40,326 nucleotides of DNA from a virus (Duplodnaviria; Heunggongvirae; Uroviricota; Caudoviricetes). The translations under genes were made by a program, and so were the position numbers. The notes beneath the pieces are model-generated. The model worked only from the letters and a program-made list of their open reading frames with translations, was not told the DNA's origin and searched no databases. The DNA lies in the IMG/VR virus record IMGVR_UViG_2531839665_000018; one strand, 5' to 3'. The number at the start of each line of letters is the position of its first letter. The first letter of the stretch is position 1. Of this stretch, positions 6,167 to 15,250 are shown one piece after another.

Positions 6167-6282
6167 GTATGCCGTTCTCACAAAAAAACCGCTTGCCATG
6201 CCGCAATCAGTCAGGTTACATTTCCGCTGCACCTCATAAAACGGGTGCCGGGATTCTCAACCCGATACAGAGCAAAGCGCAT

Positions 6283-6303
6283 AACCGCGCAAGCGGTTTT
6301 TTT
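6283..6303 (+). terminator. Candidate intrinsic terminator (GNRA-type loop)
   Basis: AACCGC-GCAA-GCGGTT stem-loop followed by seven T. Confidence 0.4.
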
Positions 6304-6482
6304 GTGCGTACTGTATTGCCACGTCTTTTTCGCGTCAGAATTATGGCGGGGCGTACGGGGCCGACTTCGGTCGGGCCGGATTCTTTGCTCTCCGGTGTTG
6401 AGAACCCTGTACGTCTCGCCACCCCGAGATTCTCAACTCTGGATGGTGAGTTATTTCTATCACCGAGCAAAGAGGCCACACC

Positions 6483-7157: not shown

Positions 7158-9980
7158 ATGACGGCAGAGTACATCAGGGACTGGCAACAACCGCGCCACG
7201 CAGTGGGGCGTGAAGGAACGGGGATCCCCGCTCCTGAATCCGCGCTTTCCTCCTGGCTGGATGCTTACCGGGTAGAGAACGAGCGCCGCCAGGAAATGGC
7301 TGACGCGGCGTTCTCCGCCACACCGCTGGGCAACCTGATTAATAAAAGCCTGGACGCACAGGAAAAGCAGGACAAAACCATCACACTGGCCAGAGAAGCC
7401 AGAAAACAGGCACGCGGTGCGGTGGATGAAGCCATGGCCTCGCTGCGCCTGCTGCCGTCCTATCTGCGCGATCCGCTTATTCGCCACCTCTCCTTCCTGC
7501 GCAAAAAACAGGAAGCCGATCGCCGGAAAGGCAAAAAGAGCTGGCAGGCGGAACGCTATGCACGCGGAACCCTGCGCAAAATATTGGAACGTCTGGCCCG
7601 CACTGACGGACGCTGGCTGACTCCGGGTTATCGCTCCCTTGCCGGACGTGAACGTCTGGACGATTTACTTTACCTGCCGCAGCTCAACAAACACCAGATA
7701 CAGACACTGGCCGTCATGACGGCGGCAATGTTCAGCAGCACCTTCGAAAAACTCTGCGATGGCTTTGGCGCGACCGATGGCGAGCTGACCATGGATATAA
7801 CGCTGAAGGCGTATCAGCTGCTGGCTCGCATGGCGTTACATCTGCACACAGTGCCTCCGCATTATGACGCACTGACAACAGACAAAGACCGGAGGAACGA
7901 ACCGGACACAGAACTGCTGCCGGGTGCAATCCTTCGCCTGACCTGTGCGGACTGGTGGAAACGCAAATTGTGGCTTTTACGTTGCGAATGGAGAGAGGAA
8001 CAACTCCGCGCTGCCTGTCTGGTTTCCAGAAAAACATCCCCCTATCTGAGTCAGGATGCATTAAGTGAATTTCGCGCACAGCGCGAGAAAACACGCGATT
8101 TCCTGAAAAGTTTCATGCTGGAAAATGAAGACGGGTTCACGATTGATCTCGAGACAGTGTATTACGCGGGAGTAAGTAACCCGGTTCACCGTAAGGCAGA
8201 AATGATGGCCACCATGAAGGGGCTGGAACTTCTGGCCGAAGCCCGTGGCGACAAAGCGGTGTTTCTGACTGTCACCTGCCCGTCAAAATACCACGCTACA
8301 ACAGAGAACGGTCATCCGAATCCCAAATGGAACGGGGCCACCATGCGCGACTCCAGCGATTACCTGGTTAACACGTTTTTTGCGGCGGTCCGCAAGAAAC
8401 TGAACCGCGACGGCCTGCGCTGGTATGGCATCCGCACGGTGGAGCCTCACCATGACGGCACCGTGCACTGGCATATGATGGTCTTTGCTCATCCGGAAGA
8501 AATCGACACCATTGTGTCCCACACCCGCGATATTGCCATTCAGGAAGATCGTCACGAGCTGGGCGATGATATTACTCCGCGCTTTAAGGCGGAGTATGTC
8601 GACGGCTCAAAAGGCACGCCAACCAGCTACATCGCCACCTACATCGGAAAAAACCTGGACAGCCGCGCCGTGGATGGCATCGACCCGAAAACAGGCAAAC
8701 CACGCGTTGACCACGAAACCGGAAAATCAATGACCGAGAGCGTGGAACGCGCCATTGGCTGGGCGCGCCTTCACCGGGTCCGCCAGTTCCAGTTCTTTGG
8801 CATCCCCTCCCGTCAGGTGTGGCGTGAACTGCGTCGCCTTGCCAGCCAGATGGCACGCAACCCGGAAGGCCCGCAACGGCTGAAGGATGACGCAATGGAT
8901 GCGGTTCTTGCTGCCGCTGATGCCGGATGTTTTGCCACCTACATTGAGAAACAGGGAGGCGTACTTGTTCCACGCAAGGACTACCTGATTCGCACCGCCT
9001 ACGACCTCGCAGATGAGCTGAACGATTACGGCGAACAGAGCGTACAGATTTACGGGATCTGGTCACCACTCATCGGGGAATCCTCCCGTGTGTGCACGCA
9101 CCCGGATAACTGGAAGCTGGTAAGACGTAAACCGGGAGTAGAAGACAGCGCCCGCGAAAATGGTTTTGACCTTCAGGGCGGCCCTGCCGCCCCTTGGACT
9201 CGTGGCAATAACTGTCCCCGTGTACAGGAAACGGACAACAACGGGGCAGAACAGCCGGAAGAACGGCCAGCACCGTGGCCGCAGCTCCCTGACGGCGTTG
9301 AAGTGAACGAATGGATGCGCTCACTGAAACGGCACGAACGCCGGGCGCTGATGCGTTCGCTTCGTGACAAACAGGCAAAAAACAGCAGTGATGAAATGCA
9401 GAGCTGGACACAGAGCCGCAAACAGCAGCGGCCTTTGCCTGATAACCACGAATTACTCGCTAAAGAATGGCGGGAGTCTGCCGAATCTCTCGGCCTGCAT
9501 ATCGGTGAACAGCAGATGCAGCACCTGCTACGGGGCGGCAGCCTGTACGTTGACGGCAGCATCATTGCACCGCAGGGATATGAAATTGTACGCAAACCGG
9601 ATACCCGCCCGGACAGCCGAATCACGCAGCTCTGGCAGCACCTGAGCCGTAATCACGGCGTAAGCAGCACGGAGATCCGCCATAACCCGGTCGCCAGCTA
9701 TCTGGCACAGCTGGGGGCATCAGACCCCGGAGCCGCCGCACGCCTGGCATCCGCACTTCAGCAGGACCAGAACACCATGAAAACACCCGTTACCGTGCTT
9801 TCTGACATGCTGCGCGCCATCCGCGGCGCAGAGCACGCACAGAGAATCAGTGAAACCACTGAACGCGCCAGCCGCAAAGCAGACCTGCTGCAGGGTGGCC
9901 TGACCAGTGGAAACAAAAAACAGACAGAAACGGGACTCACGAATCCCGTAAATGAGCAAAAAACGCGCAGCGATATATGA
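7158..9980 (+). CDS. A: Rolling-circle replication initiation endonuclease (P2 gpA family) with a ~200-aa C-terminal extension
   Basis: Conserved HUH-type core: VEPHHDGTVHWHMMVFAHPEE and tyrosine-bearing SYIATYIGKNL; 940 aa, longer than typical A proteins. Confidence 0.85.
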   Translation: MTAEYIRDWQQPRHAVGREGTGIPAPESALSSWLDAYRVENERRQEMADAAFSATPLGNLINKSLDAQEKQDKTITLAREARKQARGAVDEAMASLRLLPSYLRDPLIRHLSFLRKKQEADRRKGKKSWQAERYARGTLRKILERLARTDGRWLTPGYRSLAGRERLDDLLYLPQLNKHQIQTLAVMTAAMFSSTFEKLCDGFGATDGELTMDITLKAYQLLARMALHLHTVPPHYDALTTDKDRRNEPDTELLPGAILRLTCADWWKRKLWLLRCEWREEQLRAACLVSRKTSPYLSQDALSEFRAQREKTRDFLKSFMLENEDGFTIDLETVYYAGVSNPVHRKAEMMATMKGLELLAEARGDKAVFLTVTCPSKYHATTENGHPNPKWNGATMRDSSDYLVNTFFAAVRKKLNRDGLRWYGIRTVEPHHDGTVHWHMMVFAHPEEIDTIVSHTRDIAIQEDRHELGDDITPRFKAEYVDGSKGTPTSYIATYIGKNLDSRAVDGIDPKTGKPRVDHETGKSMTESVERAIGWARLHRVRQFQFFGIPSRQVWRELRRLASQMARNPEGPQRLKDDAMDAVLAAADAGCFATYIEKQGGVLVPRKDYLIRTAYDLADELNDYGEQSVQIYGIWSPLIGESSRVCTHPDNWKLVRRKPGVEDSARENGFDLQGGPAAPWTRGNNCPRVQETDNNGAEQPEERPAPWPQLPDGVEVNEWMRSLKRHERRALMRSLRDKQAKNSSDEMQSWTQSRKQQRPLPDNHELLAKEWRESAESLGLHIGEQQMQHLLRGGSLYVDGSIIAPQGYEIVRKPDTRPDSRITQLWQHLSRNHGVSSTEIRHNPVASYLAQLGASDPGAAARLASALQQDQNTMKTPVTVLSDMLRAIRGAEHAQRISETTERASRKADLLQGGLTSGNKKQTETGLTNPVNEQKTRSDI

Positions 9981-10028
9981 AGCGCGCACAAAACAGGCAA
10001 AAACGGGATTTCAGAATCCCGTAAACGA
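9913..10028. repeat. Two ~42-bp direct repeats (9913-9956, 9987-10028), each with a 6-bp inverted repeat ACGGGA-N8-TCCCGT
   Basis: Read directly; copy 1 is inside the 3' end of A, copy 2 is intergenic just upstream of the ParM-like gene. Confidence 0.6.
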
Positions 10029-10056
10029 TTAATTAATCAACATAAGGAAAAGCGAC

Positions 10057-11016
10057 ATGAAAATTTGTATCGACGACGGCTCCACCAACATCAAGCTGGC
10101 ATGGACTGAGAACGGCGAACGCCGCAACGCCATCAGCCCGAACAGCTTCAAGTCGGAATGGTCTGCGCCGTTCGGTGGCACGCAGCCCGCGAACTACATG
10201 CTTGATGGCGTGCGCTATGGTTTTGATCCGGTCAGCGATCGCTTTGTCCAGACGACCGACACGCAATACCAATACAGTGATGTGAATGTCATTGCCATTC
10301 ATCACGCGCTGGTCAAATCAGGCATCACGCCACAGGAGGTGGATGTGGTTGTTACCCTGCCACTGAGCGAGTATTTCGACACAAACGCACAGCCGGACAT
10401 AGCCAACATCAACCGCAAAAAAGCGAACGTTATGCGCCCGGTGGAGTACCAGAACGGCGAAGCATTCACTATCCGTAACGTGCGGGTTATGCCTGAATCC
10501 ATTCCGGCTGGCTTTAAGGCACTGGCTGACATGAGTCCGTTTGAATCCCTGCTGATTGTGGATTTGGGCGGAACCACGCTGGATGTGGCAAAGGTTCAGG
10601 GGCAGCTGGCAGGTATCAGCCAGGTGTTTTGCGATCCACACGTAGGCGTTTCCCTGATGGCTGATGCCGTGCTGTCGGTGATGGCCACTAACGGTATGCG
10701 TACCAGTCACCACATCGCCAATACCATTATTGAGCACCGTCACGATGAAGCCTGGCTGCGCCAGCACATTCACAATGACGCGCATTACAACAGCCTGATG
10801 GCGGTTATTCGTGAAAAGGAGGAGACACTGAAACAACGAGTGATCCGCGCGCTGGCGGGTTTTTCCGGTTACGGGCGGGTGATGGTTGTCGGTGGAGGGG
10901 CGGAGATTGTGGCACCCGCTATCCGCGAAGCCTGCGGAGTTAATGCGACTTTCATCACGGACGGGGTGCCACAGTTTGCTCTGGTTAATGGGCTGTACGC
11001 AATGAACAAGGAGTAA
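10057..11016 (+). CDS. parM: ParM/StbA-family actin-like segregation ATPase
   Basis: Characteristic motifs along the whole length: IDDGSTNIKLAW, ISPNSFKSEW, YSDVNVIAIHHAL, VMPESIPAG, LLIVDLGGTTLD, FSGYGRVMVVGGGAE, LVNGLY. Confidence 0.85.
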   Translation: MKICIDDGSTNIKLAWTENGERRNAISPNSFKSEWSAPFGGTQPANYMLDGVRYGFDPVSDRFVQTTDTQYQYSDVNVIAIHHALVKSGITPQEVDVVVTLPLSEYFDTNAQPDIANINRKKANVMRPVEYQNGEAFTIRNVRVMPESIPAGFKALADMSPFESLLIVDLGGTTLDVAKVQGQLAGISQVFCDPHVGVSLMADAVLSVMATNGMRTSHHIANTIIEHRHDEAWLRQHIHNDAHYNSLMAVIREKEETLKQRVIRALAGFSGYGRVMVVGGGAEIVAPAIREACGVNATFITDGVPQFALVNGLYAMNKE

Positions 11017-11020
11017 ACCA

Positions 11021-11332
11021 ATGACGACACCAACCAGAAGAATAAGTTTCTATCTGAAGCCAGCTGCCGTCAAGAACGAAGGAGAAGCATGCGCCTGGCT
11101 GGACAGCCTTACACCAGAAGCCCGCAAAAGCGGCCAACGCGTGGCTTTTCTGGCCGGGCTGGCACTTCTGAAGACGAATCCGGCAGAGGCTTACCGACTG
11201 GCCGCATGGGCTGATGATGAGATGTTACCTGTGACACAAATCAGCTCAAAAAAGTTTGACGCACAGTCTGCACCAGTGGCTAAGATAACCAGCCAGATGG
11301 CTGGGAATATCCGGGCGTTATTTCCTGAGTAA
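11021..11332 (+). CDS. parR: ParR-like partition adaptor
   Basis: 103-aa ORF 4 bp downstream of parM; N-terminal pattern RRISFYLKP...LDSL...LAGLALL resembles ParR; call also rests on synteny. Confidence 0.55.
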   Translation: MTTPTRRISFYLKPAAVKNEGEACAWLDSLTPEARKSGQRVAFLAGLALLKTNPAEAYRLAAWADDEMLPVTQISSKKFDAQSAPVAKITSQMAGNIRALFPE

Positions 11333-11460
11333 AAGCATCTGCGCGAAAAATGCTCACATTTATAGAAACAGTATCATTCCATTTGGCGCACTTACTTCAA
11401 TAATCGATCTGTTAAACAAATAGATTGTCTATTATCTATCGATTAAAACGATCAATTATC

Positions 11461-11488
11461 TTGACAGTAATGTGCCTTTTTGTAAGAT
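11461..11488 (+). promoter_or_regulatory. Candidate sigma70 promoter (-35 TTGACA, 16-nt spacer, -10 TAAGAT) with GATC overlapping the -10
   Basis: Read directly; AT-rich upstream region with further GATC sites at about 11406 and 11450. Confidence 0.4.
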
Positions 11489-11696
11489 CGTTCGCATTGT
11501 GAGCGACAAGATAATTGCGCGGCATTGTCCATGCAAAACGCCCCAATAGCAGCAACTATTGGGGCGTAGAACTCGGTCGGACTCACTTAACCTGATATGC
11601 GTGCCTTCCGAAGTAAATCAAAATGTGCGTCGTATATTTTATTGCTTACACGCACCTCTGTAAAGGCACGCATATTTTTCCTATGAGGTAAATAAA

Positions 11697-11966
11697 GTGC
11701 GGGCTAAAACAGGTATTTGCAAGAACCCTCATCGTTATAACCCAACATTTCTGTCTCTCCCTGAATATCAAGGACAAGAAGGTCGGCACAAATGCGCTGC
11801 CTGTGCTTTTGAGCTAGGCATAAAAGATGCGCTTGAAGGACGCGCTATGGCTCAGAATGATTTAGTTTTAGCTAACATTCCGTTTAGCCAGGCTGGAACT
11901 GTAAGGCACAGAGATGCTTATGAAGCATATGTTCGTGGTTGGCGATTAATACACAGCAACAATTGA
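11697..11966 (+). CDS. Hypothetical small Cys/His-containing protein
   Basis: 89-aa ORF, GTG start with RBS GAGG; Cys/His cluster CKNPH...HKCAACAFE; followed directly by a strong terminator. Confidence 0.4.
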   Translation: MRAKTGICKNPHRYNPTFLSLPEYQGQEGRHKCAACAFELGIKDALEGRAMAQNDLVLANIPFSQAGTVRHRDAYEAYVRGWRLIHSNN

Positions 11967-11973
11967 TATTTTT

Positions 11974-11999
11974 AAAGCGCCGATAAGGCGCTTTTTTTT
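11974..11999 (+). terminator. Intrinsic terminator
   Basis: AAAGCGCC-GATAA-GGCGCTTT stem-loop followed by TTTTT. Confidence 0.6.
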
Positions 12000-12160
12000 G
12001 TTTGCACGATAGTGCACAAGTTTGCACAATTTTTTTGAACGACTTTTTGTACTTCCGGCCCGCGTGGCGGCTGGATCCGTCAAGGATCCGTACGTGCACA
12101 AAAAACACGTTTTTTCTACGCGCAGGTGACGGGGGAACAGCCCGCGTTTCAGGGGGTAAA
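12000..12160. other. Candidate cos/packaging region
   Basis: Position (between the accessory region and the 3' end of portal gene Q) matches P2/186 cos; repeats TTTGCAC x3, GGATCCGT x2, palindrome AAAAAACACGTTTTTT; G-rich segment CGCAGGTGACGGGGGAACAGC (12121-12141) loosely resembles the P2-family cohesive-end motif as recalled from memory. Exact cos not identified. Confidence 0.25.
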
Positions 12161-12452: not shown

Positions 12453-13499
12453 TCAGGATGTGGGCTGGGTGTCTAACAGTGCGTAAGGGTTAAAGCGGAT
12501 CACCTCTTCGCCAAGCCAGTCATTGATGTGCTTCATGGCCTCCATGACGGGCATCAGCTCGTTAATTGCGTAAACCCGCGCAGCCTTCTCCACATCACCA
12601 AACGCACTTTTTTCGCCCGGCATCGCCCCCATCAGTTGCGGCGGAACGCGGTGCGCAGCCAGCACATCATCACGGGATGCCGCCTTAACATTCATGAACT
12701 CATCCTTTGCGGTGATCTGCTGGAACGGCAAAATTTGCACCCCCTCTTTGCCCCCGTTGGGCGCATGAATGAGCACGTTTTTAAACGCACCGCCACCACG
12801 TGCACCCTGTAGCGTTTCTTTCAGGGAGTCCATGCTTTCGCGGTTTACCTGCGCTGCACCGATGTAGATGATGCACCCGGCGTGGGATCCATTGTCGTAA
12901 TACAGTTTTCTGAACATGTCCGCCGAATGAGACAGGCTGGCCGAGAGTAATGCGCCGAGATATTCCGGCATGCCGTAAATTTCCTGGTTAATGTCCGGAT
13001 TCATCAGGTGGCACACTTTGCCAGGGCGAAACTGAAACGCGTCCTTGCCATCCTGCACATACCACCATGATTCAAGATCGCTTCCGCGTCGCATGTATTT
13101 CGCCAGTGCGTGCCGTAATTTAAGTGGTTCGCCGAGCATATTGCTCCGAAGCTCAAGGAATGCGTTACCGAACACAAACCAGTCCAGCGCCAGCGCCGAG
13201 AAATCCTGCCGGGAAAGCAGCGGGTGCGGGATGTAGCAACCGAGCAATACATTGCGCTTAAAGTAAAGCGCAGACTGATGCCAGGACGTTTGCCGGGCGG
13301 CTCTTGCCAGACCGTACCAGTCCACCGGGGTTTCATACCACCGCCCGTTATCAGCACAGTACATATTGTCCAGCAGGTCATGCCCGGTCAGGCGATAAGG
13401 ACCATCAAATGTGAATGCACTGAGCGATGATTCTTTCCTGAGCGCATCAGCGAGATCAATGCGTGAACTCATGCGCACTTTTTTATTTTTTCTGCTCAT
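12453..13499 (-). CDS. Q: Capsid portal protein (P2 gpQ family)
   Basis: 348 aa; position and strand (leftward, paired with terminase P) as in P2. Confidence 0.85.
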   Translation of the reverse strand: MSRKNKKVRMSSRIDLADALRKESSLSAFTFDGPYRLTGHDLLDNMYCADNGRWYETPVDWYGLARAARQTSWHQSALYFKRNVLLGCYIPHPLLSRQDFSALALDWFVFGNAFLELRSNMLGEPLKLRHALAKYMRRGSDLESWWYVQDGKDAFQFRPGKVCHLMNPDINQEIYGMPEYLGALLSASLSHSADMFRKLYYDNGSHAGCIIYIGAAQVNRESMDSLKETLQGARGGGAFKNVLIHAPNGGKEGVQILPFQQITAKDEFMNVKAASRDDVLAAHRVPPQLMGAMPGEKSAFGDVEKAARVYAINELMPVMEAMKHINDWLGEEVIRFNPYALLDTQPTS

Positions 13500-15250
13500 C
13501 AGAACTCCATAACCGTGAAACGCTCGTTTTCTCCTTCGCCGCCAATTGGTTCGTTAATGACAGCAAGCATGGTTGCCCACGCAAGGTCGCCGTGGCTGAT
13601 CCCCCTCGCGCGGTCCGTTTCGTAAGTGATAAAGCCGCCCGGTGTTTTCACCTTACGCACGGCGTTAAAGGCCGCGACCAGCTCGCGTTCGGCGCGATCG
13701 TATTCCCACCGTCCGGCACGCATTATTTGCAGCATTTTCAGTACCAGCGACCGTTTTGATGACAGCGTGAAGGTGTACGGAATAGCGGCAGGGAAAAACC
13801 GCTTCACTATCTGATAAACAGCCTCCCCGTTCCCGCCCGTCACATCAATGCCGATGTGTTCCACGTTGTAGCGACACGTGAACTCTTCAATGACTCTGGC
13901 CTGTTCTTCAAACTCCAGCCCCTGAACGCGTCGCGTCTCCACCGTTCGAAAACGGCCACCAGGAACAGCCGGAGGAACCACCACGGACACAGCGCCGCTG
14001 TCCCCGTTGCCACTGCTGCCGTTTGCGTCATACCCAATCCATACCGGACGATTCCCCATCGGGCGGGGAGCAAAAGGTTTCCAGTCTTTCCAGTCGTCGT
14101 ATCCGTCAACACCGCAGCCAATCAGGATATTCAGGTTAAATGCCGATTCCCCTTCGCGAACAAACTCACACATATAGAGATTGAGGAACTCGTCTTCGGT
14201 GTTTTCATCACGGATTTCGTCAATATCGGTGTGTTTCCAGCCGTGATTAACCACATCTTCCAGCGTGACAATTTGCCGCCACGTCCGGTCAGGGCAGATA
14301 AGCCCGTTATGCAGCGTTTTCCAGTCCACAGAAAAACGCTGGCGTTTATGCGAGGCCTTTTTCTCGTTCCAGCGGTCGCCGTTCCAGTAGGCGTATGCCT
14401 CGTGCGTTTCGGTGGATGGCGTGGAGAAGTAGGTGCGCCGCAGTCCGCTGAGGGTTGCCATAGCGCCAGCCACCTTGCGCAGTTCGGCAAAGCGACTGAC
14501 CCAGAAAAATTCATCAAAATAAAAATTGCCCGTATAGGACTGTGCCGACGCAGCAGAAGTGCCGAGAAAATGCAGCTCTGCGCCGTTTGAGAGGATGATT
14601 TTATCGCCCCCTTTCAGCTCCACATCAACTTCAGCCGCGGCCTTCTGAATAATGCTTTTAAACTGGAACGCCTGACGACGCGACGCAGACAAAAAAATCT
14701 GGTTACGCTGGTAAGGTTGCGCCACATCGTCACGCAGCGCCATCAGCAGTGCTTCCTGTGCAAAATACCAGGTCGCCCCAATCTGTCGGGATTTCAGGAT
14801 CATCCTGTTACGTATCCCGGCTTCCCTGCAAAGGGTCAGGGAGTCAAACCAGCCCCGCTGATGCCACTCCAGCCTGCTGATGATTTTTTCCCGCAGTGCG
14901 GCAATCTGTTCCGGCGTGAAATGATTTTTGAGTTTTTTCGCCCGGCCTTTCTTTCCTGTGGCCGTCGCATCCGGCTGGCCATCATGCAGTTTTTTAAGCT
15001 GCCGGGTCAGCAGGTCTATTTCCTTGAAGTCACCACCTGTTTTATTCTGTTTTTCAGTGAGCTGGATGAGGCGCGCATCGATGGACTGCGTGACACGCTG
15101 CACGGGTGGCGTTTCATCCCACTGGTCGCGTTTTTTCCACGCATAAATCGTGTTCGGGTTTATTCCCATCAGACGTGATATTTCTGCGGGCGGATAACCC
15201 TGCCAGTAAAGTTGCCGCGCACGCTGGCGCACAAAAGCGTCCTGAATCAT
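13499..15250 (-). CDS. P: Terminase large subunit, ATPase (P2 gpP family)
   Basis: 583 aa, N-terminus MIQDAFVRQRARQLYWQGYPPAEISRLMGI; overlaps the Q start; divergent from O. Confidence 0.9.
   Translation of the reverse strand: MIQDAFVRQRARQLYWQGYPPAEISRLMGINPNTIYAWKKRDQWDETPPVQRVTQSIDARLIQLTEKQNKTGGDFKEIDLLTRQLKKLHDGQPDATATGKKGRAKKLKNHFTPEQIAALREKIISRLEWHQRGWFDSLTLCREAGIRNRMILKSRQIGATWYFAQEALLMALRDDVAQPYQRNQIFLSASRRQAFQFKSIIQKAAAEVDVELKGGDKIILSNGAELHFLGTSAASAQSYTGNFYFDEFFWVSRFAELRKVAGAMATLSGLRRTYFSTPSTETHEAYAYWNGDRWNEKKASHKRQRFSVDWKTLHNGLICPDRTWRQIVTLEDVVNHGWKHTDIDEIRDENTEDEFLNLYMCEFVREGESAFNLNILIGCGVDGYDDWKDWKPFAPRPMGNRPVWIGYDANGSSGNGDSGAVSVVVPPAVPGGRFRTVETRRVQGLEFEEQARVIEEFTCRYNVEHIGIDVTGGNGEAVYQIVKRFFPAAIPYTFTLSSKRSLVLKMLQIMRAGRWEYDRAERELVAAFNAVRKVKTPGGFITYETDRARGISHGDLAWATMLAVINEPIGGEGENERFTVMEF

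Follow-up and report, generated by a model that had tools for sequence, protein, structure and literature searches.

A conserved ParM/ParR actin-type partition cassette adjoining replication gene A in P88-like, P2-type prophages of Escherichia coli

The window, i.e., the whole stretch of 40,326 nucleotides of viral DNA that was analyzed, is a P88-like (Xuanwuvirus) P2-type prophage of E. coli. Its left end is an integrase ORF carried by the minus strand (1-1008), and the int gene annotated in the E. coli JB2 prophage (98.9% identical) corresponds to positions 1-993 of the window. The JB2 prophage adjoins dmsA. The region that carries the partition cassette is 100% identical to that of the JB2 prophage and 94-97% identical to those of phage P88 and of other Xuanwuvirus (Peduoviridae) records. 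The cassette lies downstream of the replication gene A, whose product shares 31% identity with the gpA protein of P2, and is followed by the portal and terminase genes, which are located on the opposite strand (12453-15250). The features discussed below are the following:

7158 to 9980, plus strand: replication gene A, encoding a rolling-circle initiator of 940 aa (Pfam Phage_GPA, E 1.2e-129)
9188 to 9219, plus strand: candidate origin nick region within gene A, where GCCGCCCCTTGGACTCGTGGCAATAACTGT is similar to GCCGCGCCTCGGAGTCCTGTCAATAACTGT, the sequence annotated as the ori nick site of P2, a likeness judged by eye and without statistical support
9914 to 9955, plus strand: candidate parC repeat 1, with the palindrome ACGGGACTCACGAATCCCGT at 9930-9949, within the last 22 codons of gene A
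9987 to 10028, plus strand: candidate parC repeat 2, with the palindrome ACGGGATTTCAGAATCCCGT at 10003-10022, in the intergenic leader between A and parM
10032 to 10050, plus strand: conserved element ATTAATCAA...AAGGA, between the second palindrome and the ATG of parM
10057 to 11016, plus strand: parM, encoding an actin-like ATPase of 319 aa and starting 76 nt after gene A
11021 to 11332, plus strand: parR, encoding a ParR/StbB adaptor of 103 aa and beginning 4 nt past the parM stop codon
11333 to 11989, no strand assigned: variable hotspot, equivalent of the P2 tin/old locus, delimited by blastn breakpoints against seven relatives
12453 to 13499, minus strand: portal gene Q, which is conserved and borders the hotspot on its right

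The original prediction of an actin-type cassette, with a 319-aa ORF followed 4 nt later by a 103-aa ORF, is borne out in every detail. Profile searches matched both proteins, ParM over its full length: its residues 1-157 correspond to the Pfam domain StbA_N (E 3.5e-82) and its residues 159-316 to the ParM C-terminal domain (E 1.6e-68), the two domains covering the protein end to end. Furthermore, residues 2-316 align with the crystal structure of R1 ParM (1mwk, E 7.9e-93), and the motifs DDGSTN, PESIPAG, DLGGTT and GGGAE are all intact in this alignment. By analogy with other actin-fold ATPases, we take DDGSTN to be the phosphate 1 motif, DLGGTT the phosphate 2 motif and GGGAE the adenosine motif. 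PHROGs 691 and 2515, both described as "partition protein", match the ParM/ParR pair at 1e-90 and 3e-59, respectively. Among more than 5000 matching plasmid ParMs, the closest one is only 52% identical to the protein of the window and none falls in the range of 60-95% identity. Therefore, this ParM belongs to an old and separate phage lineage and does not result from a recent capture from a plasmid.

ParR residues 6-71 match the Pfam family Plasmid_stab_B (PF10784, E 9.9e-24). Alignments with 15 homologs and with plasmid ParRs show that ParR starts with a conserved N-terminal domain (residues 1-65) and ends with a conserved C-terminal tail, NIRALFPE, the linker between them (66-92) being variable. 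The sequence RRISFYLKP of the N-terminal domain is invariant in the 15 homologs, and the tail follows the pattern N-[AI]-x-x-[LM]-F that is common to the ParRs of IncI and IncK plasmids. This three-part layout is presumably that of R1 and pSK41, with a DNA-binding ribbon-helix-helix domain, a flexible linker and a ParM-binding tail. No match of ParR was found among solved structures, and the AlphaFold model of the monomer, which places helices at residues 20-61 and 86-100, is of low confidence (pLDDT 53) and was not used as evidence. Overall, comparison of their sequences indicates that the proteins encoded by the cassette are genuine ParM and ParR members of the type II, actin-type partition family.

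The homology between the window and seven P88-like relatives (blastn) extends without interruption from gene A, across parM, to the stop codon of parR at 11332, and resumes at about 11990-12003. The true hotspot therefore corresponds to positions 11333-11989. In the window, it contains a single ORF of 89 aa (11697-11966) belonging to PHROG 3941, whose function is unknown, and a terminator-like hairpin (11974-11994) was detected across its right edge by the terminator scan. In some lineages, the homology breaks within parR, at about 11075, 11167 or 11217. The cassette had initially been regarded as variable cargo located where P2 carries tin and old. This is contradicted by the continuity of the homology through parM and usually parR, the replaced segment being the hotspot that follows. 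In P2, tin and old are carried by the opposite strand and have their own promoter, whereas orf91 follows A on the same strand. The parMR genes thus have an orf91-like position, at what is probably the tail of the early operon, and not the position of tin/old. As judged from these alignments, parMR is a conserved core module that flanks the hotspot toward gene A, and not a cargo of this hotspot.

The cassette is present in 1303 of the 5426 complete genomes of E. coli (about 24%), including O157:H7, O111, O104:H4 and ST131 strains. Almost all of its copies in these 5426 genomes (1449 of 1451) are chromosomal, the other two being plasmid-borne. Of 60 E. coli records sampled evenly, 58 have annotations for both ParM and ParR at the place of the match, and the parM and parR ORFs are intact in the eight loci checked. 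The genes are correctly annotated in RefSeq (PGAP), in phage records and in PHROGs, and the cassette has been mentioned in two papers (PMC7969092, PMC9122126). With such a prevalence and such records, partition genes can no longer be called unexpected in an integrase-bearing prophage of this group, as they had been at the outset.

A scan of genome contigs with ParM peptide patterns retrieved three near-identical loci, these patterns being too strict for diverged relatives; the latter were found through the protein database and contig look-ups. The survey of the locus in related prophages showed that the cassette is present and syntenic, not only in the seven P88-like relatives but also in P2-like prophages of Plesiomonas, Hafnia and Serratia, whose gene order is likewise gpA-parM-parR-variable genes-(ogr)-Q-P. 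In these three genera, ParM is 58-63% identical to that of the window (62-63% for Plesiomonas and Hafnia), compared to 34-55% for gpA, 30-46% for the portal protein and 36-43% for the terminase, making ParM the best-conserved protein among those compared across the four genera. The dN/dS ratio of parM (0.05-0.11) indicates strong purifying selection, and that of the N-terminal part of ParR is similarly low (0.03-0.13). Since the homology breaks inside parR in some lineages, ParR forms allelic classes, found at 97, 84, 75, 65 and 56% identity, most of whose differences lie in the linker. Residues 66-103 (linker and tail) have diverged in three of the comparisons, with a dN/dS of 0.44-0.63. As the variation lies outside the DNA-binding domain and the ratio stays below 1, this part of ParR appears to be under relaxed rather than diversifying selection.

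The repeats initially reported at 9913-10028 are real and consist of two 42-nt direct repeats (81% identical). Each repeat contains a 20-bp palindrome, ACGGGAyT-N4-AATCCCGT, and the two palindromes are 73 bp apart. Only two matches to this pattern were found in the whole 40-kb window, compared to 0.16 expected by chance. The core GGGA-N8-WCCC and the two-site layout are kept at the same positions in Salmonella, Plesiomonas and Hafnia prophages, and the spacing of 72-73 bp is maintained in three diverged lineages although the flanking DNA has diverged; in Hafnia, the first site even lies within a different ORF. In Plesiomonas, the arms are reduced to CGGG/CCCG with a 10-nt loop, i.e., a poor hairpin, but the GGG-N10-CCC register and a 72-bp spacing are retained. 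This decay of the stems with a preserved register argues for a protein-binding site rather than for an RNA stem. In Serratia, both the N-terminal strand of ParR (NRKISFYL instead of TRRISFYL) and the upstream repeats are different, which is consistent with palindromes whose sequence is specified by ParR. R1 parC consists of ten 11-bp iterons and includes the promoter. By comparison, no iteron array was found upstream of the parM gene of the window, where only the two palindromes are present. Reciprocally, the phage palindrome motif was not found upstream of the parM genes of IncI/IncK plasmids, which are instead preceded by unrelated AT-rich repeats. Taken as a whole, the two conserved palindromes fit a minimal parC and are candidate sites specified by ParR. 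The element ATTAATCAA...AAGGA that separates the second site from parM is also kept in E. coli, Plesiomonas and Hafnia despite diverged surroundings, and possibly combines a weak -10 element with a ribosome-binding site.

The terminator scan revealed no plus-strand terminator between gene A and parM, and no sigma-70 promoter ahead of parM exceeded the scan threshold. A hand-picked candidate promoter, TTCAGA-16-ATTAAT, has 8 of 12 matches and was rejected as too weak to claim. Since parMR lies on the same strand as gene A, 76 nt after it, with neither a terminator nor a convincing promoter in between, it is probably the tail of the early (replication) operon and co-transcribed with it, a timing deduced solely from gene layout. 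Expression from this operon would mean that ParM and ParR are made when the phage DNA is extrachromosomal, i.e., after infection or after excision and induction. A weak promoter overlapping the second palindrome and regulated by ParR may also exist, and would permit expression in the lysogen.

The reading that we favor, and to which we give somewhat better than even chances, is that the cassette is a working type II (ParMRC) partition module acting on circular extrachromosomal phage DNA during the expression of the early operon. Following the R1 paradigm, ParR dimers would bind both GGGA-N8-WCCC palindromes, which span the end of gene A and the leader of parM, by their N-terminal ribbon-helix-helix domain. 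The spacing of 72-73 bp corresponds to about seven helical turns, and the two palindromes are therefore expected to lie on the same face of the DNA. The C-terminal tail of ParR would then capture the growing ends of ATP-ParM filaments, and insertional polymerization would push two circular copies of the phage genome apart. The expected benefit would be that the monomeric circles generated by gpA through rolling-circle replication are kept apart and inherited. Two integrated elements, prophage CGP3 with its AlpAC system and the SXT/R391 ICEs with SrpMRC, provide precedents. The candidate ori nick region is located about 730 bp upstream of the first palindrome; if it holds, origin, centromere and motor would be clustered. 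We infer by analogy the binding of ParR to the palindromes, the timing of expression, the function of the filament and the benefit for the phage. It should also be mentioned that P2 and 186 have no system of this kind and replicate well, so that the benefit may be small or conditional. In a broader and more tentative proposal, which we would put at somewhat less than even chances, P88-like phages would organize their extrachromosomal genome with an actin-like cytoskeleton of their own. This could serve to space the circles for better replication and packaging, or to carry a transient episome through divisions before integration or after excision, with a two-site minimal centromere about 730 bp from the candidate ori.

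It has already been proposed in print (PMC7969092, PMC9122126) that the phage has a dual lifestyle, the cassette enabling P88-like phages to be maintained as plasmid prophages of low copy number instead of integrating, for instance in hosts whose attB is absent or already taken. Pfeifer et al. singled out P88 for its partition genes, with possibly "episomal and integrative states", and list it with plasmid-like replication matches (PMC7969092). The true phage-plasmid D6 does carry a ParM homolog (47.5% identical to that of the window), and NZ_CP148288.1, a circular "plasmid" record of 34,461 bp (PLSDB), is a complete P88-like genome with its integrase. However, this lone circular contig could equally reflect spontaneous induction in the culture, and the other matches in the plasmid database correspond either to prophages inserted into large plasmids or to a degraded contig from Shigella. 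The latter, a 26.7-kb "plasmid" of Shigella boydii that is linear and IS-ridden, was rejected as an episome, as was phage record 520873, which has a CP-type accession and is a linear chromosome excerpt with flanking yecA and frameshifts. Phage record 503458 likewise has a CP-type accession. Furthermore, the integrase is retained, the gpA initiator is the sole recognizable replication gene of the early region, and what is seen is this cis-acting rolling-circle protein of a lytic early operon, with no evident copy-controlled theta replicon. Of the phage-plasmid lifestyle envisaged in the original prediction, one circular record thus stands, whereas maintenance of the lysogen outside the chromosome does not, with 1449 chromosomal copies against two plasmid-borne ones. 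A stable plasmid lifestyle is poorly supported and we consider the dual lifestyle unlikely; the gene arrangement is better accounted for by segregation of replicating DNA than by a plasmid-like state.

A different reading of the upstream region would make the palindromes antisense (minus-strand) terminators or a plain operator rather than a centromere, parMR being regulated elsewhere or acting on another DNA. There are just two sites, and the terminator scan flags both as hairpins that resemble minus-strand terminators and precede T-runs; but no minus-strand gene ends near them, and the poor hairpin of Plesiomonas, with its preserved register and spacing, is hardly that of a terminator, so that we give little credence to this explanation. 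A defense or exclusion role, also suggested initially, is still harder to sustain. A filament or a centromere-binding protein expressed by the prophage would block superinfecting phages, or would destabilize plasmids or related phages by partition incompatibility. Such a role could be evoked by the vicinity of the known A-Q defense hotspot of P2-like phages (PMC9122126) and by the several allelic classes of ParR. However, ParM, ParR, the hotspot ORF and gpA gave no PADLOC match at E <= 0.01, and the cassette is conserved and syntenic across genera instead of turning over. In addition, its strand and position suggest expression with the early operon and not as a lysogenic conversion gene, and the variation of ParR spares the DNA-binding domain, with dN/dS values (0.44-0.63) that do not indicate diversification. 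We therefore regard this role as very improbable. The absence of the cassette from P2 and 186 could finally suggest an inert relic of an old recombination between plasmid and phage, devoid of any present function. This is scarcely credible for genes whose ORFs are intact in all loci checked, whose products are both annotated in nearly all sampled genomes, and among which parM is under strong purifying selection and encodes the best-conserved protein across four genera. Partition of circular phage DNA during the early phase is thus the reading retained here.

As a database finding, the cassette is ordinary, since the annotation of its genes is correct and two papers have raised the idea before: both the cassette and its possible link with an episomal state were already noted by Pfeifer 2021 (PMC7969092) and Rousset 2022 (PMC9122126). 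The literature on parMR of P88/Xuanwuvirus was found to consist of passing mentions, with no functional study. This work adds the location of the cassette outside the hotspot, its synteny across genera with a high conservation of ParM, and the assignment of this ParM to a separate lineage. It also shows that the variation of ParR differs between its domains, identifies a candidate centromere made of two conserved palindromes and provides an argument for expression with the early operon. Integration should make partition unnecessary, yet the module is strictly conserved, which suggests an extrachromosomal phase under selection for active DNA positioning. This bears on how temperate phages handle their DNA between virion and chromosome, and on whether integrating prophages grade into phage-plasmids, a blurring of categories already found for ICEs. 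If the more tentative proposal of a phage cytoskeleton is true, an actin-based system for positioning the genome would be shown for the first time in a tailed temperate phage of Gram-negative bacteria, and this in a genetically tractable P2-type model carried by roughly one in four E. coli genomes.

Among known systems, the cassette most resembles the ParMRC (StbA/StbB) loci of R1 and of IncF, IncI and IncK plasmids by its protein families, the order repeats-parM-parR, the sizes, the ATPase motifs, the N-terminal domain of ParR and its tail motif. It differs from them by its location in an integrating P2-type phage, directly after a replication gene A. The identity of its ParM to the more than 5000 plasmid ParMs does not exceed 52%, and its ParR is shorter (103 aa compared to 117-140 aa). 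Moreover, its candidate centromere is made of two 20-bp palindromes instead of an AT-rich iteron array. An actin-type partition locus is also found in another normally integrated element: SrpMRC of SXT/R391 ICEs stabilizes R391 when it is excised and replicates as a rolling circle, its expression being restricted to the excision and replication program (PMC4489591). However, SrpM and SrpR are only distantly related to ParMR of R1, of which the cassette of the window is a close homolog; furthermore, the host element is an ICE and not a phage. In Corynebacterium glutamicum, AlpAC is needed for the efficient replication of the excised CGP3 prophage (PMC4446434). This AlpAC/alpS system is likewise encoded by a prophage, combines an actin-like filament with an adaptor that binds DNA sites located upstream of the system itself, and counts among the early genes (PMC4446434, PMC5539076), but it belongs to another actin-like family, uses another adaptor and is found in a Gram-positive host. 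Phage-plasmids such as P1 (ParAB), N15 (SopAB) and D6 (StbA-type ParM) share with P88-like phages the presence of a plasmid-type partition module in a temperate tailed phage; they live as plasmids without chromosomal integration, whereas P88-like phages encode an integrase, and their location is chromosomal in over 99% of genomes. Finally, int and parABS are alternatives in cluster A mycobacteriophages (PMC6550527), whereas an integrase gene and partition genes are found together in P88-like phages.

The segment between parR and the portal gene Q (window 11333-11989), which is equivalent to the tin/old locus of P2, is the true variable hotspot of the prophage. Its start after parR is confirmed because the cargo found 3′ of this gene varies with lineage, as seen when a Serratia prophage (locus L014) is compared with phage vB_EcoM-705R2 (locus L010). 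The features of the hotspot and the cargo of these two relatives are as follows:

Window 11461-11488, + strand: promoter-like site TTGACA-16-TAAGAT, inside the hotspot
Window 11697-11966: 89-aa ORF (PHROG 3941), inside the hotspot
Window 11974-11994: strong terminator-like hairpin, across the right edge of the hotspot
L014 7450-8084: HicA/HicB toxin-antitoxin pair and Y1 transposase, 3′ of parR
L010 3399-6026: ~2.7 kb of hypothetical genes, 3′ of parR

A search of the 89-aa ORF against PADLOC gave no match. The hotspot is where a small gene for defence or conversion should be sought.

Across proteins P0001-P0082, parR itself is mosaic (within window 11075-11332). Intragenic recombination breakpoints, located at ~11075, ~11167 and ~11217, generate ParR allelic classes in which the N-terminal strand and the NI(R/Q)xxFP tail at the C terminus are common to all and the middle part differs. 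The adjacent parM retains 97-99% identity.

Among the records found, the only convincing episomal one is L003 (NZ_CP148288.1), a whole P88-like phage genome of 34,461 bp that was deposited as the circular plasmid of a feline E. coli isolate. It encodes an integrase and Cox together with parMR and a Com/methyltransferase module. Its circular form could result either from spontaneous induction or from a real plasmid state. Another record, a 226-kb contig labeled Vagococcus sp. WN89Y (L007, NZ_JBQPOM010000071.1), harbors a P88-like gpA-parMR region whose ParM is 97% identical to that of the window; it is most likely an Enterobacterales contaminant of this assembly. Vagococcus is a Gram-positive genus.

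Upstream of the cassette, a candidate origin and two RNA elements, both exceeding the Rfam gathering score, were detected:

Window ~9188-9219, + strand: candidate ori nick region GCCGCCCCTTGGACTCGTGGCAATAACTGT, within gene A, resembling the annotated ori nick region of P2
Window 6229-6303, + strand: isrK Hfq-binding RNA (63 bits)
Window 6339-6426, + strand: C4 antisense RNA (78.5 bits)

The distance from the candidate origin to the candidate centromere, which lies downstream of it, is ~730 bp. The isrK and C4 matches fall where the P88 annotation places a 'derepression protein' gene. This appears to be an immunity circuit of the P1/P7 c4-antirepressor type within a P2-type prophage.
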